A stretch of 64,000 nt of DNA from an uncultured Gammaproteobacteria bacterium (lineage in GTDB: Bacteria; Patescibacteriota; Microgenomatia; 2-02-FULL-39-11): contig CAZJBV010000002.1 of the NCBI GenBank assembly GCA_964544585.1, positions 3,468 through 67,467 of the forward strand, given 5' to 3'. Position 1 is the first letter of the stretch. The number at the start of each line of letters is the position of its first letter. A program made the translations under genes and the position numbers. A model generated the notes under the pieces. The model worked only from the letters and a program-made list of their open reading frames with translations. It was not told where the DNA came from and ran no database searches. This document shows, piece after piece, positions 1 to 45,836 of the stretch.

Positions 1-880
1 CTCCTTTCAGGTGAAGGAATCGGGAAATCCTACAATGGTGAGTTTATTTCTCTACTCTTTAGGCCTTTTGACAAACGAATTAGTCATTACTCTCCCGGCT
101 ATCCTCTTTGCCTACGAATTAATCTTAGGTAGTAAAAATCTCAAAAAGGCAGTCCCATTCGGTCTACTCTCTCTTTTCTATCTAGGCCTTCGTTTTTTCC
201 TCTTTGCACCACCTACAAAGGGCGATTATATTCAGTCAATAGGCATTAATATAATTCATAATGCCAAAGCTTATTTTCTTTGGTCATTTAATCTCCCCGA
301 CGAAATCAAAGCCCAATTTTTAAATTTCTTTCAAATAAACCCTCAATTTATAAAAGATTTTCCCTCTTTTACCACCATCCTTTTAGTTACCTTTTTTATT
401 AACCTCATAATTTATCTTCTGGGAGCCTACAAAAATCCCAAAATATTCTTCTTTGGTTTCTCCTGGTTTTTACTAGGACTTACTCCCGTTATTTTTTTCC
501 CAAAACACAGCTTTTCTTATTATCTTGAGATATCTCTCATCGGACTTCTTTTGCCTTACGCCCTTTTTATCAGCCGTTTTAGCCTCCTAAATTTTTCCCT
601 ACTTTCCCTTTTCCTCCTTACTTGGGTTATCTCTTCTTTTAATACCATCAAATTCAACGAACTAATTCATTGGGCTCCCCAAAGAGCGGCAAACAGCCTC
701 CGACTAATCACAGAAATTAAAAAAAAATATCCAAATGAAAAAAGTACTGTGTATGTCCTCAATACTCCCGAAAACCGTTATTCCCTAAATGGAGAAGAGG
801 CAGTCAAAGTTTTTTTTAAAAACCCTAAAATAAGAACCATCTATACCCAAGAAGCGCCAGGAAAACATCTAATAAGATGA
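1..880 (+). CDS. 5'-truncated CDS (reading frame enters from upstream of window); C-terminal part of a polytopic membrane protein, GT-C-like; first 25 nt are the right arm of a palindromic element read in-frame (..SFQVKESGN..)
   Basis: Open frame from nt 2 with no stop. The first nt match 'gactcctttcaggtgaaggaat' of the elements at 13649 and 14923, in the same frame. Downstream sequence is hydrophobic and TM-rich. Confidence 0.5.
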   Translation, partial: SFQVKESGNPTMVSLFLYSLGLLTNELVITLPAILFAYELILGSKNLKKAVPFGLLSLFYLGLRFFLFAPPTKGDYIQSIGINIIHNAKAYFLWSFNLPDEIKAQFLNFFQINPQFIKDFPSFTTILLVTFFINLIIYLLGAYKNPKIFFFGFSWFLLGLTPVIFFPKHSFSYYLEISLIGLLLPYALFISRFSLLNFSLLSLFLLTWVISSFNTIKFNELIHWAPQRAANSLRLITEIKKKYPNEKSTVYVLNTPENRYSLNGEEAVKVFFKNPKIRTIYTQEAPGKHLIR

Positions 881-900
881 AATTTTAGTATAATTGGAAT

Positions 901-2364
901 GTGGATGAAACCTATATTCAAGACGTAAAGAAAAAATCAATCATTGGTGTAGCTACCCTCATTGCTCGTACCTTCTTTCTCCAAATTGTTTCTCTCATTG
1001 CCATGTTTATTCTAACCATTCTTCTCTCTCCTAGTGTTTTTGGCATTTATTATATAGTCCTTGCTATTATTAACATTCTCAACTATTTTGCCGATATAGG
1101 ATTGGCATCGGCCCTCATTCAGAAAAAAGATGAACCCGGCTCCGAGGATTATAAAACTACATTTACCATCCAGCAACTTCTCGTTTCAGTCTCTGTCTTA
1201 ATTTTTCTTCTACTCTCCGAGAGTATCGGCAGCTTTTTCAATTTGACCAATGAAGGCATATTTCTCTTACGAGCTCTTCTTATTTCCTTTTTTCTTTCTT
1301 CATTAAAGACTATTCCCTCCGTCATTCTTGAAAGAAAGCTGGAATTTGGCAGAAAAGTAGTCCCCCAGATTCTGGAGGTACTTTCCTTCAATATCGTCAC
1401 CGTCTTTTTGGCCTGGAGAGGATTTGGGCTTACAAGCTTTGCATATGCAGCCCTGGTGCGCGGAGTAGTGGGCGTTGTGGCAATTTATATCCTGTCTCCC
1501 TGGAAATTGGGTTTTGGCATAAGTAGATCCTCAGCAAGGAGTCTTCTCTCATTTGGTATACCCCTCCAGGCAGGCGCAATCTTAGCCCTCGTCAAAGACG
1601 ATTTACTTACAATATACTTAGGTAAAGTCATCCCTATAAAAGCCGAAATTGGCTATATTGGTTGGGCAAAAAGATGGTCGGAGGTGCCCTTGAGACAATT
1701 TATGGACAATATCATCGCCGTCTCTTTTCCCGTATATTCTCGCATACAACACAACAAGGAAGTCCTAAGAAAAGCCCTTGAAAAAACAACTTTTTTTACC
1801 GCACTTTTTATATTTCCGGGAGTTGTGGCCATGGTAATTCTAATAAAACCCGTTGCCCTAGTAATCCCCGGATATTTTTCCAAATGGCAGTTTGCCTTTT
1901 TTTCCTTTTATTTACTCTCTGTTAATGCCATTTTAGCCTCTCTCTCAAGCCCACTGGTCCAGGCTCTAAATGCTTTGGGTAAAGTAAAGACAACTTTTAT
2001 TTTAATGCTAGTCTGGACCTTTCTTACCTGGGCGATTATCCCGATTCTAGTCTCCCGTTTAGGCTTCAATGGTTTTGCCATCGGCTCATTTATCATTTCC
2101 CTGACTGCCTTTTTACCCATTTTTCTTATTAGAAGATACACTCCCTACTCACCTATTAAACCACTCTTAAAACCCACCATCGGGACGATCATAATGGCCC
2201 TCTCAATGTCTATTCCACTTGCAACGATCGGTTCCTCCCTTTTTGGAGTCATTCTCGCAATCATATCTGGTGTAACGCTTTATAGCCTCTTTATCTACAA
2301 AACCTCCAAAGCCGAAGTCGCCCCCCTCTTTTTGCAACTTATAAAAACTATTAAAATGAGGTAA
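901..2364 (+). CDS. Polysaccharide biosynthesis protein, Wzx/MOP-superfamily oligosaccharide flippase-like (about 12 TM, 487 aa)
   Basis: Length, uniformly hydrophobic multi-helix profile, and glycan-cluster context. GTG start at 901 is the first start after the in-frame stop at 886. Confidence 0.55.
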   Translation: MDETYIQDVKKKSIIGVATLIARTFFLQIVSLIAMFILTILLSPSVFGIYYIVLAIINILNYFADIGLASALIQKKDEPGSEDYKTTFTIQQLLVSVSVLIFLLLSESIGSFFNLTNEGIFLLRALLISFFLSSLKTIPSVILERKLEFGRKVVPQILEVLSFNIVTVFLAWRGFGLTSFAYAALVRGVVGVVAIYILSPWKLGFGISRSSARSLLSFGIPLQAGAILALVKDDLLTIYLGKVIPIKAEIGYIGWAKRWSEVPLRQFMDNIIAVSFPVYSRIQHNKEVLRKALEKTTFFTALFIFPGVVAMVILIKPVALVIPGYFSKWQFAFFSFYLLSVNAILASLSSPLVQALNALGKVKTTFILMLVWTFLTWAIIPILVSRLGFNGFAIGSFIISLTAFLPIFLIRRYTPYSPIKPLLKPTIGTIIMALSMSIPLATIGSSLFGVILAIISGVTLYSLFIYKTSKAEVAPLFLQLIKTIKMR

Positions 2365-2384
2365 TTAGTTTTTACCAATATTAT

Positions 2385-2552
2385 GAAGGAGAAATTTCTG
2401 TTACAACAGGCAAGTTAATGGATGGAAAATTGCCACCACGAGCTATGAAGTTAGTTAAGGAATGGATGCAAAACCATAAAGAAGAATTAGCAGAAAATTG
2501 GAGGTTAGCAGAAGAACATAAGAAGTTAAAGAAAATTGACCCTTTGAAATAA
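2385..2552 (+). pseudogene. DUF4160 family remnant lacking the N-terminal about 25-30 aa (no PPHFH box, no start codon)
   Basis: Translation ..YYEGEISVTTGKLMDGKLPPRAMKLVKEWMQNHKEELAENWRLAEEHKKLKKIDPLK* matches the C-terminal two-thirds of DUF4160 proteins (..LEGSLPRRAL.LV.EWA..H..EL.ENW.LA......I.PL). Upstream in frame is a stop inside the flippase 3' end. Confidence 0.6.
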
Positions 2553-2554
2553 GT

Positions 2555-2800
2555 ATGACGCCTAAAATAAAAGAAATACAATACAAGGAAAAATATACTT
2601 ACTATATACGTTTCGATAATAATCGCGAAGGAAGTGTGAACTTTCAATCTTTTCTTTGGGGTGAGGTCTTTGAACCATTAAAGGATGAAAAATTTTTCCG
2701 AAAGGCATATGTTGATCAAACATCAGGTACTATAACTTGGCCAAATGGTGTCGATATAGCCGCTGAAACACTATATCAAAAAATTCTCTCAAATAACTAA
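2555..2800 (+). CDS. DUF2442 domain protein (usual partner of DUF4160)
   Basis: 81 aa. The ..YYIRFDNNREGSVNF.....FEPLKDEKFF....VDQTSGTITWPNGVDIAAETLY pattern is typical of DUF2442. It starts 3 nt after the DUF4160 remnant. Confidence 0.7.
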   Translation: MTPKIKEIQYKEKYTYYIRFDNNREGSVNFQSFLWGEVFEPLKDEKFFRKAYVDQTSGTITWPNGVDIAAETLYQKILSNN

Positions 2801-2930
2801 CCATTCCACCCAGTTCCCATATAGTTTTTCGTCTAGATGTCCTACTACGAATATTTTTACGAAGTAAGATAAATATAAAAAATATATATTTTTTGTTATT
2901 TTCAATAAATTAGATAAAATATGACGATCA

Positions 2931-3224
2931 ATGCATATGAATAACTGTGAATCTGATGCAAGAACTATATACTGTAACGGTGGAAGTGCCCCAAACCGCT
3001 GTGCCGCTTGGAATCTAGCTAGATGGCAAAAGATGAGAAGACAAGAAATTGCTGCAAATGGAGGAGAATTTATTGATATAGATCGACCAAGTTACCGTCC
3101 CGTTGGATGTAAACTTGGATTAAAACCAAATCCAACATGTAGTGCTATGACTAAACCTCTTGATGTGACTATATATTATCTTCCAGCCGAAACCACACAA
3201 AATACAAACCCACAAAATCCTTAG
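2931..3224 (+). CDS. Hypothetical small Cys-rich protein (97 aa)
   Basis: ORF preceded by a 110-bp AT-rich tract (2820-2930). No recognisable family. Confidence 0.3.
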   Translation: MHMNNCESDARTIYCNGGSAPNRCAAWNLARWQKMRRQEIAANGGEFIDIDRPSYRPVGCKLGLKPNPTCSAMTKPLDVTIYYLPAETTQNTNPQNP

Positions 3225-3263
3225 ACACTTACATCATTTTTGCTATAATCATGCTGACAGATC

Positions 3264-3602
3264 ATGCAATTTTTGGTGATTGGAAAAGACGGAAAGGATA
3301 AAAAAGCTAAGCAGCGAAGAATAGCAGCAAGACAAGCGCATCTTGCTCTTGGCGACAAGATGGAGGAGGAAGGTACCAGGTGGTACGGAGCTGTCCTAAT
3401 GGATGAAAAAAACAACATGATTGGTTCTATGGCAGTCATGGATTTTCCCTCAGAAGAAAAACTTCAAGAATGGCTGAAAAAAGAACCATATGTAACAGGA
3501 AAAGTATGGAAAACAGTAGAAGTAATAAAATGCAACGTCAAAAATCCTTGGAAATTTAATAGGCCACAATCGTTCTTTGAATCGAGGAAAAATGATAAAT
3601 GA
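3264..3602 (+). CDS. YciI-like family protein (dimeric alpha/beta barrel)
   Basis: MQFLVIGKDGKD...RRIAARQAHLALGDKMEEEG...YGAVLMDE...MIGSMAVMDFPSEE.LQEWLKKEPYV.GKVW..VEV fits the YciI-like signature. Confidence 0.7.
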   Translation: MQFLVIGKDGKDKKAKQRRIAARQAHLALGDKMEEEGTRWYGAVLMDEKNNMIGSMAVMDFPSEEKLQEWLKKEPYVTGKVWKTVEVIKCNVKNPWKFNRPQSFFESRKNDK

Positions 3603-3663
3603 TTCAAATCATTTATACATGCAAGACATTGAAAGTTGCCAAAGCATTAGATAGTATCAAACT

Positions 3664-4050
3664 ATGAAAACTATAAAACAAATCTACACAATAAATGCCT
3701 CACCCGAGAAAGTTTGGAACGCACTCGTGGATCCCAAAACGATTAATGAGTGGGGCGGGGGACCGGCCAATATGGACGAAAAGCTAGGCACAAAATTTAC
3801 TCTCTGGAGAGGAGATATCCATGGAAAAAACATAGAGGTTGTCCAAAACAAAAAAATCGTTCAAGAATGGTTTGGTGGAGACTGGGAGAAACCTTCAAAA
3901 GTGACCTTTACACTGACAAAAAAAGGTGAAACCACAGAACTAAGTCTACTTCACGAAGATATCCCGGATAACAGCGCAAAAGATATAGACGACGGCTGGA
4001 AAACTTACTACCTGGGTCCCCTCAAAGCATTATTAGAACATTATGAATAA
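3664..4050 (+). CDS. SRPBCC superfamily protein (AHSA1/Activator of Hsp90 ATPase homolog 1-like domain)
   Basis: ..I.ASPEKVWNALVDPK.I.EWGGGPA......G.KF.LWRGDIHGKN.EVV.NKKIVQEW..GDW..PS.VTF.L..KG..T.L.L.H..IPDN... is the typical AHSA1-domain profile. Confidence 0.75.
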   Translation: MKTIKQIYTINASPEKVWNALVDPKTINEWGGGPANMDEKLGTKFTLWRGDIHGKNIEVVQNKKIVQEWFGGDWEKPSKVTFTLTKKGETTELSLLHEDIPDNSAKDIDDGWKTYYLGPLKALLEHYE

Positions 4051-4076
4051 ACGAACTAACACTAGACCACCAGAAT

Positions 4077-4433
4077 ATGTGGGTATTTTTTTTCAAAACG
4101 CCAATGGGCGGAGGAATACGTCCAACTGTGGATGATATAGAAAATACTTATTTAAAAAGGGGGCGCACTTACTTGGAGTTATATTTAAAATCTCCATTGC
4201 CACCATCACAAAAAAAGAGGTGGGTTGAAATCGGGCTTCCGAGTATTAGCGAAGGAATAGGCTTAGCCGAAGTATTTGAACTACATCCAAATGAGAATTT
4301 ACTTAAAGAATGTAAAGACCTTATGGAAAATGAAAAATTAAGGCCAATTATTGATGAAATCCGCGCAGAAGAAAGACGTAGACAGGAAGAAGAAAGAGAT
4401 AGAATTGGCTTTAGAGGCTTATCTCGCAAATAA
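4077..4433 (+). CDS. Hypothetical protein with charged ER-rich C-terminus
   Basis: ORF only. Start uncertain (alternative Met at 4104). Confidence 0.25.
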   Translation: MWVFFFKTPMGGGIRPTVDDIENTYLKRGRTYLELYLKSPLPPSQKKRWVEIGLPSISEGIGLAEVFELHPNENLLKECKDLMENEKLRPIIDEIRAEERRRQEEERDRIGFRGLSRK

Positions 4434-4500
4434 TAGTCGCCTTGTTATTCAGACGTAAAAAGACTATACTCATTGTCCTATAAATTAAATAAATAAAACT

Positions 4501-4968
4501 ATGGGAGATTTCAATCCAAATTTCCGATCAGGAGGAGGAAGAAGTGGCGGCTTCCGAGGAAGAAATTTAGGTGGACGTGGTTTTGAGCGAAGAGAAGAAG
4601 GACCTCGAATGATGCACAAAGCCGTATGTGCCAATTGCGGAAGGGTTTGCGAAGTCCCATTTCGTCCTAGTGGTGACCGGCCAGTTTACTGCAGTGATTG
4701 CTTCGAAAAGAGAAGTAACGAGGGGGCAAGATTCCAGTTTCAAGACAGACGATGGGGAGAGCGACCAGGTGGCGATAGAGGAGGCGGGCAGAGAAGTAAT
4801 ACCCAACTCACACAAGAGCTACGTAACCTCAATGCCAAACTGGACAGAATTCTTAGAGTATTAGAACCCCAAACTCCAAAAGGACCGGAATCTATAATTA
4901 CAGAGCCCAAAGCCAAAAAACCAAAAGACACAAAGAAAAAAACCACAGAAGAAAAGACCAAAGAGTAA
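4501..4968 (+). CDS. CxxC-x17-CxxC zinc-ribbon domain protein with RGG-rich N-terminus and Lys-rich tail
   Basis: CANCGRVCEVPFRPSGDRPVYCSDCF is the exact CxxC-x17-CxxC spacing (TIGR04272-like). The low-complexity RGG/K-rich flanks are typical of this family. Confidence 0.7.
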   Translation: MGDFNPNFRSGGGRSGGFRGRNLGGRGFERREEGPRMMHKAVCANCGRVCEVPFRPSGDRPVYCSDCFEKRSNEGARFQFQDRRWGERPGGDRGGGQRSNTQLTQELRNLNAKLDRILRVLEPQTPKGPESIITEPKAKKPKDTKKKTTEEKTKE

Positions 4969-5015
4969 ATCAGCCTCAAAAACAAGTTTTTCTCGCAAAG
5001 TGCTACAATAGAGGT

Positions 5016-5915: not shown

Positions 5916-5920
5916 ACTCA

Positions 5921-10862: not shown

Positions 10863-12530
10863 ATGACCGGAAAAGGACGCTGGTTTTTCATCGCAATTAT
10901 TATTCTTGCGGCAATTTTGCGCTTTTATAAACTAGGTGATATTCCTGTCGGACTTGAATGGGATGAAGTAGCTTTAGGCTACGACGCATACTCTATCTCC
11001 CAAACAGCAAAAGACCAGTTTGGTACATTTCTTCCCCTTACTTTTCGTTCTTTAGACGATTATAAACCTCCAATTTACATTTACGCTACGGTTCCCGGTG
11101 TAGCCCTTTTTGGCCTAAACGACTTTACCACCAGATTTCCCGCAGCCTTTTTCGGGACAGCCGCAGTCATTTCTACATTTTTTTTAGCCCAAGAACTTAC
11201 AAAATCTAAAAAAATTGCCCTTATAGCTTCTCTTTTCCTAAGTTTCTCCCCCTGGCATCTCCAGTTTAGTCGGGCTGCATTCGAAGTAAACATTTCAGAC
11301 GCGATTACCATTGCCGCGGTGGCCTGCTTTCTCATCGGCCTCAAAAAACCTAAAATATTCATTCTTGCGGCAATACTTTTTGGTCTAGACCTCTTTTCTT
11401 ATCATTCCACCCGCGTCGTTGCTCCAATTATTATGCTGACTTTATTTGTATTATTTAATAAAAGACTCCCCTCCAAAAAATATATCACGATCTTTTTTAT
11501 CGTCTTTGCAGCTTTCTTTTTGGCAGTACTTCCCATCCTCCGCTCAAAAGAGGCACAAATTAGATTTATTGCCACCAACATCTTTACTCCAGGAGCACGG
11601 TATCTGGACGATAAAGATTTGGAAAAAGTTTTCCTGGAAAAAAGGCTGGAAGATACCAAAGCAGGATTCGAAACAGCCGGAAAAATATTTCATAATCAAA
11701 GACTTAAATATCTTGACTACGATACTTTAAAAAAAGCGTTCAACAACTACATCTCAAATTTCGGCTTTGATTATCTTTTTATTAAAGGCGACGTCCCCCT
11801 TCACCACGCTCCCGGATTTGGCCTCTTATACATCGCCGAGCTTCCCTTTATTCTTATTGGTTTGGGGTACATACTTTTAAAAGCCCGTAGCCCATATACA
11901 CTCTTGATTCTTATCTGGATGCTAATCGTTCCACTTCCCAGTGCAGTCACCCGGCAGGCGCCCCACGCGGTCCGCACAGAGCTATTTTTACCCACCTACC
12001 AAATTCTTTCGGCTTTAGGACTTTTTGCTATTTATTCGCTTGCTAAAAAGCAATCTCTTTGGGTCTATTTAACAAGCTTAAGTGCAATTACTACAATCCT
12101 CTCTGTAAATCAATCATTTTATCTCCACCAGTATTATGTCCACACCAATTACGAGCTCTCAAAATACTGGATATATGGGAGAAGAGAGGCGGTCGAATTT
12201 ACCGAAAAAGAAAAAAATAATTATGAAAATGTCACCGTTTCGCTCAATGCAGATATGCCCTATATTTTCTGGCTATATTATTCAAAATATCCTCCCAAAG
12301 AATATCTTAAAAAAGGTGGCACCGTATCCGGTGGTTTTGCCGACCAAAGAAATTCCTTTGACAAATATCTATTCCGAAATTTTAATTATGAGGAAGAAAA
12401 AAAACTATCAAAAAAGCAACTTCTTATCGGTACTAAAAAAGATTTTCCACCCGATATAAATCCCCTAAAAATAATAAAGTACATCAATGGAGAAGAAGCT
12501 TTATTTATAGTAAAGACGGATGGGTCATAA
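10863..12530 (+). CDS. GT-C fold membrane glycosyltransferase, family 39 (PMT/ArnT-like, PMT_2), paralog 1 of 8
   Basis: N-terminal ..L.WDEVALGYDAYSISQTAKDQFGTFLP (periplasmic-loop DE motif), about 11 TM, C-terminal soluble domain, 555 aa. Confidence 0.75.
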   Translation: MTGKGRWFFIAIIILAAILRFYKLGDIPVGLEWDEVALGYDAYSISQTAKDQFGTFLPLTFRSLDDYKPPIYIYATVPGVALFGLNDFTTRFPAAFFGTAAVISTFFLAQELTKSKKIALIASLFLSFSPWHLQFSRAAFEVNISDAITIAAVACFLIGLKKPKIFILAAILFGLDLFSYHSTRVVAPIIMLTLFVLFNKRLPSKKYITIFFIVFAAFFLAVLPILRSKEAQIRFIATNIFTPGARYLDDKDLEKVFLEKRLEDTKAGFETAGKIFHNQRLKYLDYDTLKKAFNNYISNFGFDYLFIKGDVPLHHAPGFGLLYIAELPFILIGLGYILLKARSPYTLLILIWMLIVPLPSAVTRQAPHAVRTELFLPTYQILSALGLFAIYSLAKKQSLWVYLTSLSAITTILSVNQSFYLHQYYVHTNYELSKYWIYGRREAVEFTEKEKNNYENVTVSLNADMPYIFWLYYSKYPPKEYLKKGGTVSGGFADQRNSFDKYLFRNFNYEEEKKLSKKQLLIGTKKDFPPDINPLKIIKYINGEEALFIVKTDGS

Positions 12531-14197
12531 TGGTTAAAAATATTATTTTGATCTTTATTCTTCTTCTTGCCCTCATTCTGCGAATATTTCGTGTCGATAC
12601 AAATCCTCCCGCTCTTTATTGGGACGAAGTAGCGATGGGTTACAATGCCTACTCAATTATCAAAACCGGGGCCGACGAATACGGACACAAACTACCCTTT
12701 TTCTTCGAATCATTTCAGGATTACAAACTTCCTGGATATATATATTCTCTGATTCCGGGAATCCTACTTTTTGGAGTAAGTCCATTAACGATCCGTCTTC
12801 CTTCTATTTTGTTTGGCTTCATTAGTATTATCGGAATTTATGTTCTTGGTAAAAATATTCTGGGAACAAGAGTTGGATTATTATCAGCGTTTATAGTAAG
12901 TATCATCCCCTGGCACATCCAATTGACTAGGGTAGGTTTTGAAGTCAGCGGTGGATTTGCCCTTCTCATTTTTGGCCTCCTTTTTCTCTGCCTCGGTAGA
13001 CAAAAAAAACTCCATCTTTATATTGGTGTCTTTTTGCTTATTCTCTCCCTATCTTTTTATAATGGCCTAAGAATCATCGTCCCCGTCGTTCTCATTTCCT
13101 ATTTGCTTTTTTTTAGCAGAAGTCTTCAACTATCAATAAAAGATTTACTCTGGGGGACGATCACGCTGATATTGCTAAGTCCAGTTATTTATCAATTTAT
13201 GAATCCTGATGCTCTCGTAAGATTTAGATATACCAGCATTTTTAGTGACCCGACACTTCTCGAAGAATCGATAAATAAAAAAGAATCCGTCAACAATTTT
13301 TTAGGTAAAGTATGGTACCACCGGTATAGGGTGTATGGAGAAAAAATTGCCAGGAATTATTTTGCCCACTTTTCTCCTGATTTTCTTTTATTTGATAGCG
13401 GAGAAAATGTTCGCCACAAAGTATCGGGGATTGGCCTTCTCTATCTTTGGACCGTGCCTTTTTTAATATTTGGACTTTATACTCTCATTCACCAAAGAAA
13501 TGAGTCTTTAAAACTGATTCTTCCTTTACTACTTGCCGCCCCAATTGCCTCTTCTTTTACCATTCCCTCTCCCCACGCTCTTCGTTCATTTCCACTTCTC
13601 ATTCCCCTTATTTTCATCATCGCCTTTGGAATAACGAGTCTCGTCAAGCACCTGAAAGGTGGCAGGAATGCCTACCTGCCGGCAGGCAGGGACTCCTTTC
13701 AGGTGATGGAATCTGCATTTATAATCCTCATATTGGTATTTGCTGCTACAAGTCTTTCCAGATATTTATTCGAATTTTATTTTTTCTATCCCAAACACAC
13801 TAGTAGAGATTGGGCATACGGCTATAAAGAAGTATTTGAAAAAGCAAAAAAATTTGAGGCAAGGGCAGACACCATATTTATATCTGGAAGATATTGGCGC
13901 CCATACATTTTTGCCTTATACTATCTCGACATTGACCCAAAAACATATCAAAAAAATCCCACTCATTCCCAAATTGGCAAGTTTATATTTGGACACGCCG
14001 ATTATGACGTGTCCGATCCGTTTTATGATTATAAAACTTATGATAATAATATAGTTCACAAGCTGCGCCAAAAAGGAGGAAATAACTATCTCTTCCTTTC
14101 TCCCCAAGAAACAAAAGCTGGGGATATAGTTATTGATAATATTCAGGATCTAAAAAGGGAGACGCTTTTCAACATTACCAAGAGCAGAAGTAAATAA
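12530..14197 (+). CDS. GT39/PMT-family GT-C glycosyltransferase, paralog 2, carrying an in-frame palindromic element insertion
   Basis: YWDEVAMGYNAYSIIKTGADEYGHKLPF motif. ATGA overlap with the previous gene. Element at 13649-13706 is translated as HLKGGRNAYLPAGRDSFQV. Confidence 0.75.
   Translation: MVKNIILIFILLLALILRIFRVDTNPPALYWDEVAMGYNAYSIIKTGADEYGHKLPFFFESFQDYKLPGYIYSLIPGILLFGVSPLTIRLPSILFGFISIIGIYVLGKNILGTRVGLLSAFIVSIIPWHIQLTRVGFEVSGGFALLIFGLLFLCLGRQKKLHLYIGVFLLILSLSFYNGLRIIVPVVLISYLLFFSRSLQLSIKDLLWGTITLILLSPVIYQFMNPDALVRFRYTSIFSDPTLLEESINKKESVNNFLGKVWYHRYRVYGEKIARNYFAHFSPDFLLFDSGENVRHKVSGIGLLYLWTVPFLIFGLYTLIHQRNESLKLILPLLLAAPIASSFTIPSPHALRSFPLLIPLIFIIAFGITSLVKHLKGGRNAYLPAGRDSFQVMESAFIILILVFAATSLSRYLFEFYFFYPKHTSRDWAYGYKEVFEKAKKFEARADTIFISGRYWRPYIFALYYLDIDPKTYQKNPTHSQIGKFIFGHADYDVSDPFYDYKTYDNNIVHKLRQKGGNNYLFLSPQETKAGDIVIDNIQDLKRETLFNITKSRSK
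13649..13706. repeat. GC-rich nested palindromic element (type 1): CACCTGAAAGG-[CCTaCCTGCCGGCAGGCAGG]-CCTTTCAGGTG, in-frame inside the CDS
   Basis: Outer 11-bp inverted repeat plus inner 20-bp palindrome, read directly. The GC-rich island contrasts with an AT-rich gene. Confidence 0.9.
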
Positions 14198-15108
14198 TGA
14201 AGAAATTCTTTATTTTAGTTCTTCTAAATGCTATTACAATCCATTTCTACAAACTAACTACCATATCACCTTTAAAGACTGGGTCAATCTTTTTTAGGTA
14301 TTTTTCCAGTCTTTCCTCAATATTTTCTATTTTTTTACTTTATAAAATTGTCTTTTATTACTCTAAAAATAAAAAAATAGCCTCTCTTTCTGCACTTATA
14401 TTTTCCCTACTTCCATGGACAATATGGGAAGGAAGAATAGCATCCGAAGTAAATATCTCTTTATCATTAATTCTTGCGATTTTATTTTTAGCATCAAAAA
14501 TACATGGAATAAAAAAGTTTTTTTTACTGGGGATAATACCTCTGATTATTTATTTTTTTTATCCTTCCTTTTGGCCATTTCGTCTGAGCACAAACTTAAG
14601 AGATTCTTCTCTTTCAGACTTTGTCAACAATATTTTCTTCCTTTCTTCCCTGGAAACATTATTTTTTAAAAATCCGACATTTTGGTGGGGAGGAGTTCGG
14701 CAGTGGGGGATAAGCCTTTCTGCTTTTATCCCATTTTTTTTCATCGGTTTTTTCACCACGATAGTTCAAAAAAATATTAAACTTATTTTTATTTTAATCG
14801 GAATTCTTCTACTTGCCTCTTTATCTCCTTTTCTTCCCGAAAGTAGAGAATTTTATTTTGCCACCCCAATAATAAGCTATTTCGTTTCAAAGGGTATGCT
14901 CACTGTATGTTATGCCTTAAAACACCTGAAAGGTGGCCGGAATGCCTGCCTGCCGGCAGGCAGGGACTCCTTTCAGGTGAAGGAATTTGCAATTGCTCTT
15001 TTCATTTTTTTATTTATTTATGAATACCAAAATTTTCTCCATTATTACATGGTCCATTTTCCCCAAAATGTGAAAGGACATCTCTATGATATCAAAGGAA
15101 ATTTCTAA
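14197..15108 (+). pseudogene. Decayed GT39 paralog (303 aa). Internal deletions remove the DE-motif loop, the central helices and the C-terminal domain. Retains the palindromic element at the position homologous to paralog 2.
   Basis: ..SLSALIFSLLPWTIWEGRIASEVNISL.. aligns with ..LLSAFIVSIIPWHIQLTRVGFEVSGG.. of 12530. The tail ..ALKHLKGGRNACLPAGRDSFQVKEFAIALFIF matches ..LVKHLKGGRNAYLPAGRDSFQVMESAFIILIL. No DE motif. Ends where the next paralog begins. Confidence 0.5.
14923..14979. repeat. GC-rich nested palindromic element (type 1), in-frame inside the truncated paralog
   Basis: CACCTGAAAGGTGGCCGGAATGCCTGCCTGCCGGCAGGCAGGGACTCCTTTCAGGTG read directly. Confidence 0.9.
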
Positions 15109-26668: not shown

Positions 26669-26755
26669 CACCTCGGACCTGCCTGCCGCCCTGCCTGCCG
26701 GCAGGCAGGGCAGGCAGGTTGGTGGCCCCGCTTAGCAGTGACTCCTCCGAGGTGG
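26669..26755. repeat. GC-rich nested palindromic element (type 2, long), intergenic, ending 13 nt before the start of the next gene
   Basis: CACCTCGGA-CCTGCCTGCCgccCTGCCTGCCGGCAGGCAGGgCAGGCAGG-...-CTCCTCCGAGGTGG. Outer inverted repeat CACCTCGGAG/CTCCGAGGTG, inner duplicated-arm palindrome. Confidence 0.9.
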
Positions 26756-26768: not shown

Positions 26769-27695
26769 ATGAAAATCATGGTGACCGGCGGAGCCGGTTT
26801 TATTGGATCAAATATTGTAGATGACTTTATTAAATTAGGCCACCAGGTAGTTGTGGTTGATGACCTAAGCTCTGGGAAAAAAGAGTTCATCAATCCCAAA
26901 GCTAAATTTTACCAAATAGATATTCGCAAAAGGGAAGACTTAAAAGCAATTTTTACCAAGGAAAAGCCAGAAATCCTCAATCACCAAGCAGCCCAAATAA
27001 GCGTCAGAAAATCAGTCGAAGATCCCCATTTTGACGCAGAAATAAACATCTTGGGACTCATAAATCTCTTGGAGGAGGTAAAAGAAAATGGTATCAAAAA
27101 AGTAATTTTTGCTTCATCAGGCGGAGCCATTTATGGAGATGCCAAAACCATTCCTACCCCAGAAGATTACGAACCAAAAATCCCTTTATCCCCCTATGGA
27201 GTCACAAAACTTACCTCCGAATTTTATCTCCAATACTATTTCTCCAATTTTAAAATTCCTTATATTTCTCTTCGGTATGCCAATGTTTATGGACCCAGGC
27301 AAAATCCAGATGGAGAAGCCGGTGTCGTTGCCATTTTTAGTAAAAAACTACTCAAAAATATTCCCCCCACCATAAATGGGGACGGAAAGCAAACCCGAGA
27401 TTATATATTTGTTGGTGACGTCGTCGACGCAAACATAAAGGCCCTTACTTCCAATTTTGTAGGCCTAGTCAATATTGCCACCGGAAAAGAAACAGACGTC
27501 ATAACTATTTTCAATAAATTAGTAAATATGGTCGGAGTAAAAATTAATCCAATTTTTGGCCCTGCCAAACAAGGCGAGCAAAAAAAAAGTTGCCTTAAAA
27601 TTGATCGAGCAAAAAAAGTATTATCCTGGACTCCAGAGGTAAATTTGGAACAAGGTCTCAGAAAAACTATTGACTATTTTAGGACCAGAAATTGA
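26769..27695 (+). CDS. NAD-dependent epimerase/dehydratase, extended SDR (UDP-glucose 4-epimerase GalE-like)
   Basis: MKIMVTGGAGFIGSN Rossmann motif, YANVYGPRQ, and the catalytic S...YxxxK context. 308 aa. Confidence 0.75.
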   Translation: MKIMVTGGAGFIGSNIVDDFIKLGHQVVVVDDLSSGKKEFINPKAKFYQIDIRKREDLKAIFTKEKPEILNHQAAQISVRKSVEDPHFDAEINILGLINLLEEVKENGIKKVIFASSGGAIYGDAKTIPTPEDYEPKIPLSPYGVTKLTSEFYLQYYFSNFKIPYISLRYANVYGPRQNPDGEAGVVAIFSKKLLKNIPPTINGDGKQTRDYIFVGDVVDANIKALTSNFVGLVNIATGKETDVITIFNKLVNMVGVKINPIFGPAKQGEQKKSCLKIDRAKKVLSWTPEVNLEQGLRKTIDYFRTRN

Positions 27696-33276: not shown

Positions 33277-33377
33277 CACCTCGGACCTGCCTGCCGCCCT
33301 GCCTGCCGGCAGGCAGGGCAGGCAGGTTGGTGGCCCGCCAGCAACTGCGTAGCTGTGGGCGGGACTCCTCCGAGGTG
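33277..33377. repeat. GC-rich nested palindromic element (type 2, longest copy), intergenic, ending 15 nt before the start codon
   Basis: Identical to 26669-26730 over the first 62 nt, then diverges, and re-converges at GGGACTCCTCCGAGGTGG. Followed by AGGAATCAAAACTCATGAAAAT. Confidence 0.9.
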
Positions 33378-33392: not shown

Positions 33393-34181
33393 ATGAAAAT
33401 TTCAGTTGCAATAGCCACATACAACGAGGAACAAAACATCGGTAGATGTCTCAAAAGCGTTGCCGATTGGGTTTCCGAAATTGTAGTCGTTGATGGAGGA
33501 TCCACCGATAAAACTAGAGAAATAGCCAGGCAGTACAAAGCAAGAGTCATCAAAACAGATAACCCACCCATATTTCATATTAATAAAAATAAGGCCATAG
33601 ACGCATGTCGGGGAGACTGGATATTACAGCTTGACGCCGACGAAGTAGTCACGCCTCCCTTAAAAGAAGAAATACTCAAAACGATCAACAATCGGTTTGA
33701 TGGTTTCTGGCTTCCCCGCAAAAACTTTTTTTTAGGGAAATTTTTGACCAAAGGAGGTCAATATCCCGACTACACTCTTCGGCTTTATAGAAAAGGTAAA
33801 GGCAAACTCCCAGCCAAATCAGTCCATGAACAAGCCGCTATCGTTGGGGAAGTTGGCTTTTTACATAACCCCTTGGAGCATTTCCCTTATCCAGATTTTT
33901 CTCATTACCTGGATCATTTCAACCGCTACACTACTATCCTTGCGACTGAATTTGCCAGCCAAAATGTTTCTTTAAACTTTTTAAATACGATTATTTATAT
34001 GTTCATAAAGCCCAAATTATGGTTTTTGTCTACATATTTAAGGCATAAAGGATTTATAGACGGATTTCCGGGATTGGTTTTTTCATTCTTTTCTGCTCTT
34101 CGATTTCCCACAGCCTATATCAAATATTGGGAAATGTCGGTCAAAGGCCGATCCGCCTTTGGCGGAAATAAAAAGGCATGA
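33393..34181 (+). CDS. Family 2 glycosyltransferase (GT2), paralog of 5016 and 6829
   Basis: MKISVAIATYNEEQNIGRCLKSVADWVSEIVVVDGGSTDKT and LQLDADEVV. The start is taken at the Met just after the palindromic element. The ORF track's 33327 start lies inside the element. Confidence 0.75.
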   Translation: MKISVAIATYNEEQNIGRCLKSVADWVSEIVVVDGGSTDKTREIARQYKARVIKTDNPPIFHINKNKAIDACRGDWILQLDADEVVTPPLKEEILKTINNRFDGFWLPRKNFFLGKFLTKGGQYPDYTLRLYRKGKGKLPAKSVHEQAAIVGEVGFLHNPLEHFPYPDFSHYLDHFNRYTTILATEFASQNVSLNFLNTIIYMFIKPKLWFLSTYLRHKGFIDGFPGLVFSFFSALRFPTAYIKYWEMSVKGRSAFGGNKKA

Positions 34182-37006: not shown

Positions 37007-37363
37007 ATGACGCTAACTCAAATTGTTTTAACCCTCTTTCTCATATTTGCCTTAAGTAGGGTGATACTCAGGTACCAAAGCAAAGAAGTATCTTTCCGTG
37101 GGCTTATATTTTGGACTTGTGTTTTTGGCTTGGCCATAATTGCCGAGCTCTTTCCCAATATCACTACCGAAATTGCCAAAATGTTAGGAATCACCAGAGG
37201 AGTCGACGCCGTAGTTTATACATCCATTGCTCTTTTATTTTATCTTGTATTTAGGCTCTATGTTTACTTAGAGGATATCAGAAAAGAAATTACCGCCCTA
37301 ATAAGAATGATAGCCATAAAAGATAAGTCTTCGCATGATCACAAAAAATCTTCCCAAAATTAG
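37007..37363 (+). CDS. DUF2304 family small membrane protein (usual partner of Dpm1-like GT2s; possible GtrA-like accessory)
   Basis: 118 aa, two TM helices separated by ..FPNIT.EIAKMLGI.RGVDAV.. Located 6 nt downstream of the Dpm1-like GT2. Confidence 0.55.
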   Translation: MTLTQIVLTLFLIFALSRVILRYQSKEVSFRGLIFWTCVFGLAIIAELFPNITTEIAKMLGITRGVDAVVYTSIALLFYLVFRLYVYLEDIRKEITALIRMIAIKDKSSHDHKKSSQN

Positions 37364-40766: not shown

Positions 40767-41626
40767 AGAAGAGAATAATCCTCACTGGCGCGAGCGGCTA
40801 TATAGGCTCGCAATTTTTGAATCTTAAACCAAAAGAATTTGATATCACGGAAGTTACCCACGACAGGTTGGATATTACCGACAGTAGGCTAGTCCATGAT
40901 TTCTTTAGTAAAAACGATGCTCCGATAGTAGTTCATCTCGCGGCAAAAACGCATATAGACGCCTGTGAAACGGATCGACCGCTAAAAAATATAGGTCAAA
41001 CATGGAAAGTAAACATCCTCGGTACAAAAAATATTATCAAAGCATGCCTTGCATTTAATAAAAGACTTATATATCTTTCCACAGAATGCGTCTTTGACGG
41101 AAGGAAGCCTTTTTACACAGAAAAAGACAATCCACACCCCATCAACTGGTACGGAGAAACTAAAAAAATTGCCGAGGAAATGATTAAAAAAGACATGGAA
41201 AATTATGTTATCCTTCGTTCAGTATTAACATATGGTAACCCAAACAATAATAAAAATGATTTAATTAAAACATTCGCCAGAACATTACAGCAAGGCCGTA
41301 AACTCAAGGCCGTTACAGATCAAAGATTATCGATTACTTACATTGATGATCTTATAAACACGATTCACGCCGTAGTCAACAGCAACATGTCAGGAATTTA
41401 CCATTTCGCCGGCAGTGAAATTTTTACTCCTTTTGATATTGCCCAAATTGTCAAAAGAACTCTCCGCTTAACACATGGAGAAATAGTTCCCGTCACTTTA
41501 AAAGAGTTTTTTAATAATAGGAAGAAATTAAGACTAAGGAATGCCGTTCTTTCTTCGGCTAAAATAAGAGAAAATCTCAATGTAAAAACGACACCGCTCA
41601 AAACTGTACTCAATAGAATTCTTTAA
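40748..41626 (+). CDS. NAD(P)-dependent sugar reductase/epimerase, RmlD (dTDP-4-dehydrorhamnose reductase)-like
   Basis: ILTGASGYIGS...; YGETK..AEE. 292 aa without the dehydratase insertion. Confidence 0.55.
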   Translation: MANRKMKKRIILTGASGYIGSQFLNLKPKEFDITEVTHDRLDITDSRLVHDFFSKNDAPIVVHLAAKTHIDACETDRPLKNIGQTWKVNILGTKNIIKACLAFNKRLIYLSTECVFDGRKPFYTEKDNPHPINWYGETKKIAEEMIKKDMENYVILRSVLTYGNPNNNKNDLIKTFARTLQQGRKLKAVTDQRLSITYIDDLINTIHAVVNSNMSGIYHFAGSEIFTPFDIAQIVKRTLRLTHGEIVPVTLKEFFNNRKKLRLRNAVLSSAKIRENLNVKTTPLKTVLNRIL

Positions 41627-41641
41627 TAACATAAAAAATCC

Positions 41642-43078
41642 ATGAAATGGCTTGATAAACTTTTCCTTTTCTCCATTCTTCTCCTCTTTCTTTTTTTGAC
41701 AACACGCAATCTAAAAAAACCATTCTACGGAGCTCACGAATTTAATAGCATCATTTTCCAGGAGGCAGCCAAATCTTATGTTGATTATGGACTACTAAAG
41801 ACTAAACTGGCGCCAATGCCCAAAGCCCCTTTTGAAGATATGTCTCAAGCATATTACTACCTCAATCATCCTATCGGACTTCCTTTGCTTCTCTCATTTT
41901 TCCAAAAAATTTTAGGATTTGACCATTGGGTCGGACGGCTTCTCCCCATTATTTTTTCGTTTGGAAGCCTTATAGTTTACTACTATTTAGTAAAACAGAT
42001 AGAAAAAGGATTCGTCGCTTTCATATCCCTTTTTATTTTTGCCACACTCCCTATTTTTGTTTATTACTCACAAGTTATCGTTCATGAATCTCCCGTTTTA
42101 TTTTTTTACCTCTTAACCACATTTCTTTATTTTTCCAATCGCATCTATTTTCTTGGAAGCCTATTCCTTATGACCCAATTCGGTTGGCCCGGCTATTATT
42201 TCGGAATTATTTTAATCTTTTTGCAATTAATAAAATTCAAGACTATAACAAAATTAACTCTTCTTACCGCGGCAACAATGGCAACTTCCTTAATCATAAC
42301 TCTAACACATTTTATGATTGTCAAAGGTTCACTCTCTTTTCTATTTTCTCAATTTTTAGTCCGTGCAAACATTGTTGCCTTAAACGTCTCATTTCTTGTC
42401 TGGATGAATAAGATACTAAAACACGCTAATAATGGATTTAGCCAAATAGGCATTCTGATCTTCATCATCGCCTTAATATTCACTATCATAAAATGGAAAT
42501 CCCTCGCCAAAAAAGAAAAGGAATTCATTATTCTGCTCTTATTTCTTCCTTTGATCCATATAGCTTTATTTCCCCAAGGAGCGTTTATCCATGATTATTG
42601 GTTATTTTATTTTTCTCCCATATTAGCATACCTTTTCGCCAAAATTTTATATCTCTTTTGGCAGAAAAAAATAATTTTATTGATTATCCTAACCATAATT
42701 CTGACTTTACATACTTACTTAAGTTTCATTAAAATAAGAGACTATTTTACTTTTACTGAAATAACTTTCTATATTTCCTGGGAACAAGCTGAAATAATCA
42801 ATTCCTATATGAGGAAGCAAAAAATAAAAAAAGTTAGCTTATTGACACTGAAACCATCGTTAAATCCCGCCCTTAAATTTTATCTAAAATATCCTTTTTC
42901 TTTTGCTAAAATACCAAAAGATTTAAACAATATAAATATAAATAGAGACAGTGTAAATTTTCTTCTTCTTATAGAAACATTTCCCAGACAAATAGTTGAC
43001 TCAATATGTCAAAAATATAAATGCCAAGTTTTATTGGATAGGGATCTCAATCTTGTCGCCGTTTTGGGAGTTAAATGA
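41642..43078 (+). CDS. Polytopic membrane protein, hypothetical (GT-C-like candidate)
   Basis: 478 aa, about 12 predicted TM helices. No diagnostic motif recognised. Confidence 0.35.
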   Translation: MKWLDKLFLFSILLLFLFLTTRNLKKPFYGAHEFNSIIFQEAAKSYVDYGLLKTKLAPMPKAPFEDMSQAYYYLNHPIGLPLLLSFFQKILGFDHWVGRLLPIIFSFGSLIVYYYLVKQIEKGFVAFISLFIFATLPIFVYYSQVIVHESPVLFFYLLTTFLYFSNRIYFLGSLFLMTQFGWPGYYFGIILIFLQLIKFKTITKLTLLTAATMATSLIITLTHFMIVKGSLSFLFSQFLVRANIVALNVSFLVWMNKILKHANNGFSQIGILIFIIALIFTIIKWKSLAKKEKEFIILLLFLPLIHIALFPQGAFIHDYWLFYFSPILAYLFAKILYLFWQKKIILLIILTIILTLHTYLSFIKIRDYFTFTEITFYISWEQAEIINSYMRKQKIKKVSLLTLKPSLNPALKFYLKYPFSFAKIPKDLNNININRDSVNFLLLIETFPRQIVDSICQKYKCQVLLDRDLNLVAVLGVK

Positions 43079-44253
43079 AAATATTATACGTCATACCACA
43101 TTATTATCCGGCAACTGACTTTGGAGGACCCGTCGTGGCTCTTCATGAGTTGGGAAAAGAACTTCTATCTTTAGGACACGATATCACCGTCTATACAACC
43201 GATGTCTATACCAAGAAAAGACGCGTCACAACTGCCCAAAACATTATTGATGGTATAAAAATACACTATTTTCCCAACATTAGTAATACTTTAGCCTTTA
43301 TATATAATGGATATTTTGCCCCGAACTTCGCCAAAAACTATAAAGATTCGATTGACTCATTTGATCTAGTCCATATACACGAATTTTATTCAATTCTAAA
43401 TTTCCAAGCTGCATATTACGCCGCTAAATTTGGCATTCCCGTTGTCCTCTCGGCCCATGGCAGTTTTACCAAATCTTCTTTCCGCGGGAAAAATATACTG
43501 AAAAATATCTTCCTTTCTATTTTTGGAAACCAGATGTTAAATAAAGTAAATCACTTTATTGCCCTTTCGGATAGAGAATTTTATCAGTATAAAAAATTTG
43601 GCATAAAAGATAATCGTATATCAATAATACCCAACGGCGTCTCGCAAGTTTTAAAAGTAAAAAATAACCTTGGTGAAAAATTAATAACTAAATTAAGAAT
43701 CCCTAAAAACCATAAAATTATTCTTTTTGTCGGTCGACTTCATAAAGTAAAAAATTTAGAGCTTTTAATAGATGCTTTTATAGAAGTCCACAAAAAAGAT
43801 GAAAAAATAAAATTGATAATTGCCGGTCCAGATGCCGGAGAAGAAAAATATTTAAAAGAATATGCCAAAGGTCACGATAAATTCGATAGCACCATTTTTA
43901 CAGGCTTTGTCAATGAACAAGAAAAAGAAGCTCTTTATGAAATGGCAGACGTTTTTGCAATGACATCACATTTTGAAGGGCTTCCCACCGCCGCTCTTGA
44001 AGCATCATCCCATGGACTGCCACTTATATTGACTACATCATGTAGTATAAAAGAGATAATGGAATACTCTGCCGGTTTCATAGTCAAAGAAGATTCCAAA
44101 ATCATTGCTGATAAAATAGATTATCTTCTAAAAAGAGAAAAAACTAGAAAACTTATAGGCAGAAATGGTCAAAGAATGATAAAACAGAAGTTTTCCTGGA
44201 AAATAATAGTTTCAAAATACATTGATCTTTATAACTCTCTATTAAAAAAATGA
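43075..44253 (+). CDS. Family 4 glycosyltransferase (GT4)
   Basis: ..SHFEGLPTAALEASSHGLPLILTTSCS.. Confidence 0.8.
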   Translation: MKILYVIPHYYPATDFGGPVVALHELGKELLSLGHDITVYTTDVYTKKRRVTTAQNIIDGIKIHYFPNISNTLAFIYNGYFAPNFAKNYKDSIDSFDLVHIHEFYSILNFQAAYYAAKFGIPVVLSAHGSFTKSSFRGKNILKNIFLSIFGNQMLNKVNHFIALSDREFYQYKKFGIKDNRISIIPNGVSQVLKVKNNLGEKLITKLRIPKNHKIILFVGRLHKVKNLELLIDAFIEVHKKDEKIKLIIAGPDAGEEKYLKEYAKGHDKFDSTIFTGFVNEQEKEALYEMADVFAMTSHFEGLPTAALEASSHGLPLILTTSCSIKEIMEYSAGFIVKEDSKIIADKIDYLLKREKTRKLIGRNGQRMIKQKFSWKIIVSKYIDLYNSLLKK

Positions 44254-45710
44254 AATATATATTTATCATATTTGTAATATTATTCTCTTTTTTGCGAATC
44301 TCCAGTTTTTCTTCTGGTTATGCCTATTGGGGTGACGATTTTGCCCAATATATTCATCATGCTGTTAACCTCGCTAAAGGAATTAATTATTCCGACACCG
44401 GCTACATATTTAATCTCCAAAGTCCACTCATCGGACCCCAAGTTTATCCTCCCGGCTATCCGATTATCCTGTCTCCCCTTATATTTTTATTTGGACTTAA
44501 CTTCCTCAGCCTAAAAATTCTCAATGTCTTATTATTTGAGATTTTCATACTGATCATATTTTTTCTCACAAAAGAAGCTGCTAAAAACGAAATGCTTGCT
44601 CTATTTATTGCCCTATTTTTACAAACTTCCTCCTCATTTCTTTATCTCGAAACTTGGATCATGCCAGAATTTCTCCTTTTATTATGCGTCTATTTAATGC
44701 TTTTTTTAATTTACAAACTGCAAACGGATAAGTCCAAAAAATCTATCTCGTTGGAAATCTTGCTCTATTTTGTTGCCATACTTACCTCACTTACGCATCC
44801 AATAGGACTGTTGATAACAGGAGGATTGAGTCTCTATACGATTAGTGTGGCAAGGAAGAATTGGATAGTTGGAATCGGACTTTTAATAATCGCCATTCTA
44901 TCGATCATTCTCTACCAGAGGTTGGGAGTTATAGGCTATTACTCTGAAACAAACATCGGATTTAGCTTTTCTTCCCTAAAAGACACTTATTTGGAGAATG
45001 TAATCTATTATTTTCAAGAATTCCGTACTTTCTTAGGAACACCCTTTACAAAACATTTTTCTTTCCTCAATACCTTTTATTCCCTTTTATTTCCGATGAT
45101 TGCAGCTATCTATGCAATCCACTACCTCTTATATAATCGGCGAAGTAGTCTCATCAACCTTCTTTTATTTTTACTTCTCTTTCACACCCAAATTCTTTTC
45201 TTTTGGGATTTTCGCCAAGGGGTAAGATACCTTCTCCCCTCAATCCCCATCATTATCATCTTCTTTTTTCTTGGGATAGAAAAACTAACCAAATTTAAAA
45301 GAAAAATAGCCTTTTTAGGCGTTGCGGTTTTGATATTGCTACAGACACTTCAATCCCGTCATGTTTTAAAGCCAGAATATGATCTTTTTGCCGATAGCAA
45401 AAACCGCCAGTTCCTTTCTTATTTTGCCAAGTTTAATAGAAAAACCGTAGTCGTCTTTGAAAAACCTCGTCTCTTAAGCCTTATGACTCCGGTTTCTTCT
45501 TTGGCAATCGCCGATAGTCTAAAACCTAAAGAAAATCTGGAAATAATTAGAAAAAATAGGACCTGCTTTATTGTCTCTCACAAATTACCAAAAGACATAG
45601 GCGTAGAAAGAGCAATAACTTCTCTTGTCTCCAATACGTCTCTATTTACCAAAGTATTGGAAAATGATGATTTTATCATTTTTAAATTTAGAGACTGCCC
45701 GGAAGGATAG
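44250..45710 (+). CDS. Polytopic membrane protein (PMT_2/GT-C-like candidate)
   Basis: 486 aa, multi-TM. N-terminal ..YWGDDFAQYIHHAVNL..G box in the first loop. Confidence 0.35.
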   Translation: MKYIFIIFVILFSFLRISSFSSGYAYWGDDFAQYIHHAVNLAKGINYSDTGYIFNLQSPLIGPQVYPPGYPIILSPLIFLFGLNFLSLKILNVLLFEIFILIIFFLTKEAAKNEMLALFIALFLQTSSSFLYLETWIMPEFLLLLCVYLMLFLIYKLQTDKSKKSISLEILLYFVAILTSLTHPIGLLITGGLSLYTISVARKNWIVGIGLLIIAILSIILYQRLGVIGYYSETNIGFSFSSLKDTYLENVIYYFQEFRTFLGTPFTKHFSFLNTFYSLLFPMIAAIYAIHYLLYNRRSSLINLLLFLLLFHTQILFFWDFRQGVRYLLPSIPIIIIFFFLGIEKLTKFKRKIAFLGVAVLILLQTLQSRHVLKPEYDLFADSKNRQFLSYFAKFNRKTVVVFEKPRLLSLMTPVSSLAIADSLKPKENLEIIRKNRTCFIVSHKLPKDIGVERAITSLVSNTSLFTKVLENDDFIIFKFRDCPEG

Positions 45711-45816
45711 AACTTAGTTCAGAACCGATTTCGTAGCGAAAGACCATAGGTTCTCGCGAAATTGGTGAAAAGCGACGAAGGAGTATATGGCAATATACTT
45801 CTAGGAGCTTTGAACC

Positions 45817-45836
45817 CTGCCTGCCGGCAGGCAGGC
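45817..45836. repeat. Solo copy of the 20-bp palindrome core CCTGCCTGCCGGCAGGCAGG in the 188-bp intergenic region upstream of asnB
   Basis: Perfect palindrome read directly. No flanking outer inverted repeat. Confidence 0.85.

Follow-up and report, generated by a model that had tools for sequence, protein, structure and literature searches.

The stretch of DNA considered here (64,000 nt of contig CAZJBV010000002.1, hereafter the window) comes, according to the NCBI name of one of its proteins, from a member of the Gottesmanbacteria (Patescibacteria) and represents as a whole a cluster that consists almost entirely of glycan-synthesis genes, with at least ten tandem GT-C paralogues, GT2 and GT4 transferases, epimerases, aminotransferases and an ABC exporter. 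At a GC content of 36% it contains 17 short GC-rich islands (30-bp spans with a GC content of 70% or more), among them a set of palindromic elements which reach 61-73% GC and were found between genes as well as in frame within protein-coding open reading frames (ORFs). An initial annotation of this sequence, which had rightly noted the high GC content, regarded them as one family of six copies defined by a shared 20-bp core palindrome, CCTGCCTGCCGGCAGGCAGG. We report here that the core and an outer hairpin, called the scaffold in the following, are independent elements with very different host ranges, which occur in this genome one inside the other (Table 1). The window contains five cores, four exact and one with a single mismatch, and none at its start; zero copies are expected in a shuffled window, and the core together with its outer arms occurs far above chance. 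The type-1 and type-2 copies fold strongly as RNA, with z-scores of -4.2 to -5.8.

Three type-1 copies of the same architecture had been annotated, which proved correct for two of them. These are composites of 57 nt with an 11-bp outer inverted repeat; they differ at 2 of 57 bases, lie in flanking DNA unrelated to each other and are read in frame and free of stops, as annotated, as HLKGGRNA(Y/C)LPAGRDSFQV. At the window start, nothing but the 3' outer arm CTCCTTTCAGGTG is visible and there is no core; in relatives this copy is a core-less hairpin of 36 nt. Both type-2 copies are intercistronic, in agreement with the annotation, lie between genes of the same direction and end 14 nt upstream of the ATG at 26769 (epimerase gene) and 15 nt upstream of the ATG at 33393 (GT2 gene), respectively. 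The extra inner arms ascribed to them exist; what had been described as a duplication of arms is in reality a core nested in a core, with a net gain of 42 nt. The remaining copy is indeed a bare core without scaffold, located one position further upstream than given before (45816-45835 instead of 45817-45836). The asymmetric 3' arm GGACTCCTYYSAGGTG is present at the four longer copies, every time on the plus strand.

The separation into two layers follows from forms with and without the core, some of them in other assemblies (labels such as L156 denote loci fetched from genome, metagenome and viral collections). In two related assemblies the copy of the window start reads CACCTGAAAGGTGGCCGGATGGACTCCTTTCAGGTG, a 36-nt core-less hairpin (L156 3358-3393) that encodes HLKGGRMDSFQV in a protein of 453 aa, and the gene call of the source contig, which opens with MDSFQV, requires ATGGACTCC, again the core-less form. 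For type 2, a core-less copy was found in a second metagenome-assembled genome (MAG; L167 1543-1586), where CACCTCGGATGGTGGCCCCGCTTAGCGGGGACTCCTCCGAGGTG lies 7 nt upstream of an ATG. Compared to these core-less forms, type 1 has gained net 21 nt, with the core placed 3' of GGTGGC, and type 2 net 42 nt, with the core within a core placed 5' of GGTGGC. Hence, the two scaffold types acquired the core separately, and copying of the composites came afterwards. Moreover, both type-1 composites share the same extra A and both type-2 composites have identical double-core junctions, which together with the difference of only 2 in 57 bases means that the composites were copied as units. A covariance model of the outer hairpin (R1) found exactly the four full copies in the window and had zero matches in 707 kb of core-bearing genome loci. 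Thus, a single family defined by the core could not be upheld.

Table 1. Palindromic elements of the window and the genes that contain them.
Feature	Position	Strand	Remarks
First type-1 scaffold copy, partial	1..21	+	3' outer arm CTCCTTTCAGGTG (1-13) and tail AAGGAATC; inside 453-aa GT-C-like gene ending at 880
Host gene, GT-C / PMT_2 glycosyltransferase, 555 aa	12530..14197	+	Contains type-1 composite 13649..13705
Type-1 composite	13649..13705	+	Scaffold with one core in apical loop; 19 codons, residues 374-392 of GT-C gene 12530-14197
Core, one mismatch (CCTACC...)	13671..13690	.	G/A difference polymorphic between samples
Host gene, truncated GT-C paralogue, 303 aa	14197..15108	+	No Pfam match
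Type-1 composite	14923..14979	+	In frame, residues 243-261 of truncated GT-C paralogue 14197-15108; homologous loop
Exact core	14945..14964	.	Identical to CCTGCCTGCCGGCAGGCAGG
Type-2 composite	26669..26754	+	Core-in-core (26678-26718) between 5' stem arm and GGTGGC; apical module CCCCGCTTAGCAGTG
Exact core	26690..26709
Type-2 composite	33277..33377	+	Same double core (33286-33326), other and longer apical module
Exact core	33298..33317
Bare core (exact), no scaffold	45816..45835	.	Spacer between 44250-45710 and asparagine synthase gene at 45899

The in-frame segments are missing from related proteins, the reverse of the outcome that the initial annotation had named as a refutation. In the nearest 13 homologues of the 12530 protein (40-47% identity) and in three paralogues from the window, approximately 16-19 residues are lacking exactly at the element, and the first host protein has 11-12 extra residues (approximately 153-164 of 453) which are not found in 14 homologues and whose position differs from that of the 12530 insert. 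In the truncated paralogue, the element occupies the loop homologous to that of the 12530 protein, and the unrelated DNA flanks of the two composites together with their 2 differences in 57 bases point to a recent copy and not to inheritance. The AlphaFold model of the 12530 protein (mean predicted local distance difference test score, pLDDT, 86.8; predicted template modelling score 0.87) contains only one segment with a pLDDT below 50, residues 378-385, which is part of the insert and located between helices 354-376 and 387-428. The insert is accordingly modelled as a loop between helices, as the initial annotation had suggested, and this loop is probably cytoplasmic, because the extracytoplasmic C-terminal domain of GT-C proteins comes after the last helix.

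Some further features of the host genes should be mentioned. Between 10863 and 26635 the window contains ten consecutive ORFs for GT-C / PMT_2 paralogues, all but one of them full-length (534-598 aa). Gene 14197-15108 stops 43 codons past its element, overlaps the start of the next gene and may be decaying. The gene call of the source contig gives the first host gene a length of 294 aa only, with its start at MDSFQV within the element, while the two related assemblies contain the unbroken protein of 453 aa; the upstream part may be out of frame on the source contig, or the gene caller may have taken an internal ATG.

The palindromes are present in several assemblies and are real. The cores at 13671, 14945, 26690 and 45816 were recovered in Logan assemblies of six other sequencing runs, whose contigs contain the same type-1, type-2 and bare-core sequences; hence, they are not chimeras of one assembly, a concern raised by the initial annotation. 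One Logan assembly has a perfect core where the window shows the G-to-A variant (13671), so this difference represents a population polymorphism. The short-read contigs of the six runs typically stop in or at the palindromes (contig ends of L159-L166 and L289-L294), as is expected for short-read graphs. The elements therefore fragment assemblies and will be under-represented in MAGs.

The scaffold has the layout CACCT-N4-GGTGGC-(variable apical hairpin)-GACTCCT-N4-AGGTG-RA and a length of 35-60 nt. Searching with the pattern CACCT-N(4-34)-GGTGGC-N(5-32)-GACTCCTYYSAGGTG gave matches in at least 120 metagenome stretches, and the matches listed were reduced to 85 distinct sequences for alignment. 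Contigs that could be named belong to Roizmanbacteria and Patescibacteria (Microgenomates/Patescibacteria), and several come, judged from their names, from groundwater studies such as Hainich. The outer inverted repeat comprises 9-11 bp and is followed by the internal loop GGTGGC / GACTCC. Four inner pairs of the outer stem covary (CGGA/TCCG, GGAA/TTCC, CGAA/TTCG, GAAA/TTTC); over the 85 sequences pairing of the stem reaches 99.2% and 41 changes affect both sides of a pair, which no shuffle matched, in an alignment whose invariant blocks were imposed by the search pattern and in which the 5' side of these four pairs was left free. The apex is modular and consists of several different small hairpins, some of them nested; the apical module of the 33277 copy, for example, is the reverse complement of the module in L183 and L270. 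The 3' end continues with RA (97% and 87%), the 5' flank is A-rich, and no target-site duplication was seen around the matches listed.

Among these listed copies, 67 of 121 lie in ORFs which extend without a stop over 50 or more codons to either side, compared to only 9 of 104 cores in long ORFs at low-GC loci. Copies in ORFs use all three frames (18/16/14), with 20 in opposite orientation, and the main scaffold variants are, like the core, free of stop codons in all six frames. One case concerns an arginyl-tRNA synthetase (L211 1656-3452, minus strand), in which a 45-nt scaffold copy is read as HLGWWRGNDLDSSEV; in the alignment this segment faces a linker of the E. coli enzyme which is not conserved, without any net gap. 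Furthermore, an inverted partial copy stands in front of many scaffold copies (L170, L171, L186, L193, L213, L233, L263 and others), i.e. CACCTCCGAGGAGTC, a short spacer and the full element, an arrangement reminiscent of the doublets of repetitive extragenic palindromic (REP) sequences named REPINs.

The distribution of the core is quite different. At least 120 species genomes contain the 20-mer without any mismatch and in unrelated flanking sequence, where base composition would predict at most a few by chance, and it is also present in 35 viral stretches of IMG/VR. Its hosts include Patescibacteria, Bacteroidota (four cultured isolates), Omnitrophota, Planctomycetota, Gamma- and Deltaproteobacteria and Thermodesulfovibrio, and several core-bearing contigs from multiple phyla are 0.36 to 4.4 Mb long. 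The flanks are biased at the first outward base only (T 41%, A 9%). Core-in-core forms exist in other phyla as well (L018, L042, L021, L028). The low share of cores in long ORFs implies that most of them are intergenic. In a WWE3 protein, the bare core represents a clean insert of seven residues (LPAGRQG, net 21 nt) that is not present in 11 orthologues with 58-78% identity. A perfect stem of at least 6 bp encloses 11% of the cores compared to 3.4% of control sites; an exclusive targeting of hairpin loops was nevertheless rejected, since this enrichment, though real, concerns a minority of copies. In a frameshift test, removing exactly 20 nt restored ORFs no better than retaining the core.

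Cores were found in tRNA genes, too. In the viral stretch L145 (2284-2303) a tRNA-Met has the core in its variable loop and is called by ARAGORN with or without it, and in L030 (3628-3647) a tRNA-Val is called only once the 20-mer is removed. Further cores at tRNA genes, in the variable loop or D-arm, were noticed at L015 4041, L037 2127, L099 5992, L152 515 and L122 8616. Clear tRNAs were obtained by ARAGORN from L145 and L030 only; the remaining cases in the D-arm represent 5' halves or pseudo-tRNAs, and several of the 5' halves probably belong to intron-bearing tRNAs. Variants of the core exist as well. The C13T form CCTGCCTGCCGGTAGGCAGG is present in 14 viral stretches with unrelated flanks (L302-L314, e.g. 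L305 12675 and L311 13674), a pattern that copies of a variant master element would give, and L303 has a doubly changed core that is still palindromic. A second GC-rich perfect palindrome, (T)CCGCCAGCTGGCGG(A), was observed in 13 copies in approximately 2 Mb of fetched loci (L011, L015, L016, L032, L040, L108, L110, L177, L195, L243, L251, L254), again in different phyla and with unrelated flanks, where approximately 0.01 would occur by chance; a scaffold copy in L251 has this palindrome as its apical module.

Our reading of these data, to which we assign a probability of roughly 0.6, is that two unrelated kinds of non-autonomous selfish palindromic DNA became nested and were copied within the genome as composites. 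The scaffold would be a hairpin repeat of Microgenomates/Patescibacteria with an exchangeable apex, which multiplies within genomes and survives where it is harmless, i.e. between genes or in frame in protein loops. The core would be a stop-free 20-bp palindrome whose insertion adds net 21 nt (7 codons). A type-1 scaffold may have gained one core and a type-2 scaffold two nested cores, and the composites would then have been copied into the loops of two GT-C paralogues and into two intercistronic spacers of the glycosylation cluster. We infer that such elements are mobile, with purifying selection acting as the filter that would leave harmless in-frame loop copies behind, and we favour as mover a trans-acting nuclease or transposase which recognises single-stranded hairpins, would copy and paste them and may be encoded elsewhere or on a phage.

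Several observations weigh against this reading. For none of the loci was an allele with an empty site found, hence the movement is deduced from paralogous and orthologous comparisons. A Pfam scan of 30 ORFs of the window returned zero transposase or recombinase domains and no RAYT (an IS200-like Y1 transposase), and clustering of the ORFs at 155 core-bearing loci revealed no protein family recurrent beside cores, just phage structural genes of related contigs. Most cores are outside any pre-existing hairpin. Flanking direct repeats of 7 bp (6 or 7 positions matching) were present at 13 of 164 cores compared to 0.45 in the control. The distances from CACCT to AGGTG in scaffolds are frequently not multiples of 3, even in ORFs, and the constancy of the scaffold blocks was, as mentioned above, set by the search. 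Moreover, all window copies point in the same direction as the genes and the type-2 copies end 14-15 nt before start codons, so a role at the RNA level is possible.

Some related searches and candidates should be added. The same lack of a recurrent neighbour at the 155 loci pointed to no parent insertion sequence, although no collection-wide search was made for one. An IS200-like unit bounded by two cores 658 bp apart (L121, L150) was considered and rejected, since the ORF between them is a lipoprotein-like gene. Cores with flanking repeats (L082 346, L101 1815, L139 3391, L045 773, L080 187, L121 10596/11254, L144 897) are in many cases part of heptamer or octamer tandem arrays; in L121 a small lipoprotein-like gene is enclosed by long imperfect inverted repeats built from such arrays. 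When a type-2 copy was compared by BLAST with cultured plasmids and phages, the only matches were GC-rich ones attributable to chance, and in the literature searched there was no paper with these sequences and nothing relevant on palindromic elements in bacteria of the candidate phyla radiation (CPR).

As an alternative, the elements could be functional RNA structures of glycosylation operons, acting as intercistronic hairpins which stabilise the mRNA upstream, attenuate read-through or tune translation of the following gene, and would then be selected instead of selfish. This would fit the common orientation of the window copies and genes, the GGAGG or GGGTG directly after the stem of the type-2 copies at their short distance from the ATGs, the core-less type-2 copy in L167 only 7 nt from an ATG, the covariation of the outer stem and the excess of co-oriented copies inside ORFs (48 compared to 20 opposed, among the matches listed). 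We regard it as unlikely, because more than half of the listed scaffold copies reside in ORFs in every frame and both orientations, the intergenic copies keep no fixed distance to start codons and the elements are missing from homologues. Rfam scans at the gathering score and at a permissive E-value gave generic hairpin or miRNA noise only, and a promoter and terminator scan of the window stayed at chance level and did not list the elements as terminators; without a T-run after them, they do not qualify as intrinsic terminators. Some copies may nevertheless have been co-opted secondarily as functional RNA. A quite improbable explanation for the core is a binding site of a conserved dimeric DNA-binding protein, comparable to parS/ParB. 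It would fit the perfect dyad symmetry, the exact identity across phyla and the five copies in 64 kb, but a binding site is difficult to reconcile with clean insertions in conserved proteins and within tRNA genes, with nesting of the core in itself, with the lack of a neighbour gene common to the loci and with a C13T subfamily that is scattered in unrelated flanks like copies of a master element.

In some yeast mitochondria, GC-rich hairpins are bypassed. By analogy, the hairpins discussed here could be cut from RNA as a kind of mini-intron, by a double-strand-specific endonuclease with subsequent religation, or be skipped by the ribosome, and would then never be translated. Their strong and compact folds and the cores in tRNA genes are compatible with such a scenario; however, the reading frame is intact through every copy in a coding sequence, and a net size that is a multiple of 3 together with the lack of stops would be needless if the hairpins were removed, so we give it very little credence. 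It is still harder to believe that the palindromes are assembly or sequencing artefacts or that the peptide is an ancient conserved motif. Short-read contigs do break at the palindromes, but the same sequences, including a point polymorphism, recur in assemblies of six other runs and in the second MAG, both flanks run continuously through genes, and the peptide is missing from all homologues checked, i.e. the 13 homologues and 3 paralogues, the 14 homologues and the 11 orthologues of the WWE3 protein mentioned above.

Returning to nested selfish palindromes as the preferred explanation, the closest behavioural parallel is found in the Rickettsia palindromic elements (RPEs), as the initial annotation had pointed out. 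These are also short palindromic repeats that occur between genes and in frame within protein genes, are missing from orthologues, lie in loops and have no transposase of their own. The resemblance in behaviour holds; membership in this family is not supported. RPEs measure roughly 100-150 nt, whereas the elements described here have 36-101 nt, combine a high GC content in an AT-rich genome with a modular and nested build, and occur in Gottesmanbacteria instead of Rickettsia; it is thus host and size, not a consensus alignment, that set them apart. With the REP/REPIN-RAYT systems they share small GC-rich hairpins of 20-40 nt, high copy numbers, a frequently intercistronic position, some inverted partial doublets and a presumed mobilisation in trans. 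However, the GTAG/CGTC tag at the hairpin foot is missing, the first bases are CACCT in the scaffold and CCTG in the core, the flanks are unrelated, and three of six window copies as well as the 67 of 121 listed metagenome copies are in ORFs and hence not extragenic. Moreover, REPs are species-specific, in contrast to the core, which has the same sequence in different phyla.

[quoted passage not shown] In contrast to them, the scaffold is without target-site duplication, a 7-bp repeat accompanies just 13 of 164 cores, the elements are far smaller (core 20-21 nt), and no parent insertion sequence was found among the neighbours at the 155 core loci. Hence, the data do not support an assignment to RPEs, REP/RAYT or MITEs: host and size differ, a GTAG tag is missing, no target-site duplication was seen and a parent element did not turn up at these loci. 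The GC clusters of fungal mitochondria are also GC-rich palindromes in AT-rich genomes, which can be nested in each other and in occasional cases lie in frame within a gene, and are believed to be mobile without a known enzyme; they are, however, organellar and eukaryotic, have other sequences and are not common to distant lineages (PMC4478555).

The finding itself, a new CPR family of gene-invading hairpins and a cross-phylum 21-nt palindromic insertion, is real. As a tentative and rather doubtful extension, the 20/21-nt palindrome and its sisters such as CCGCCAGCTGGCGG might represent an undescribed class of ultra-small mobile DNA in many phyla and phages, which is copied by a widespread enzyme or a templated process and whose copies would persist in hairpin loops, tRNA genes and coding sequences as they are frame-neutral and stop-free. 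If true, it would be the smallest known mobile genetic unit with a cross-phylum spread. For practical work, it must be considered that the palindromes break short-read assemblies, split gene calls and add spurious peptide segments to protein databases.

In-frame palindromic invaders have so far been known mainly from Rickettsia and organelles. If the present reading is confirmed, they would be common in CPR bacteria too, where they would reshape the loops of membrane glycosyltransferases and reside in at least one housekeeping enzyme, the arginyl-tRNA synthetase. One exact 20-bp palindrome that distant phyla and phages have in common as a clean insertion of 7 codons would furthermore imply that an element without room for any coding information spreads horizontally or is served by a shared machinery. 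Such elements would then provide a tractable system in which the copy-and-paste of hairpin DNA can be studied.

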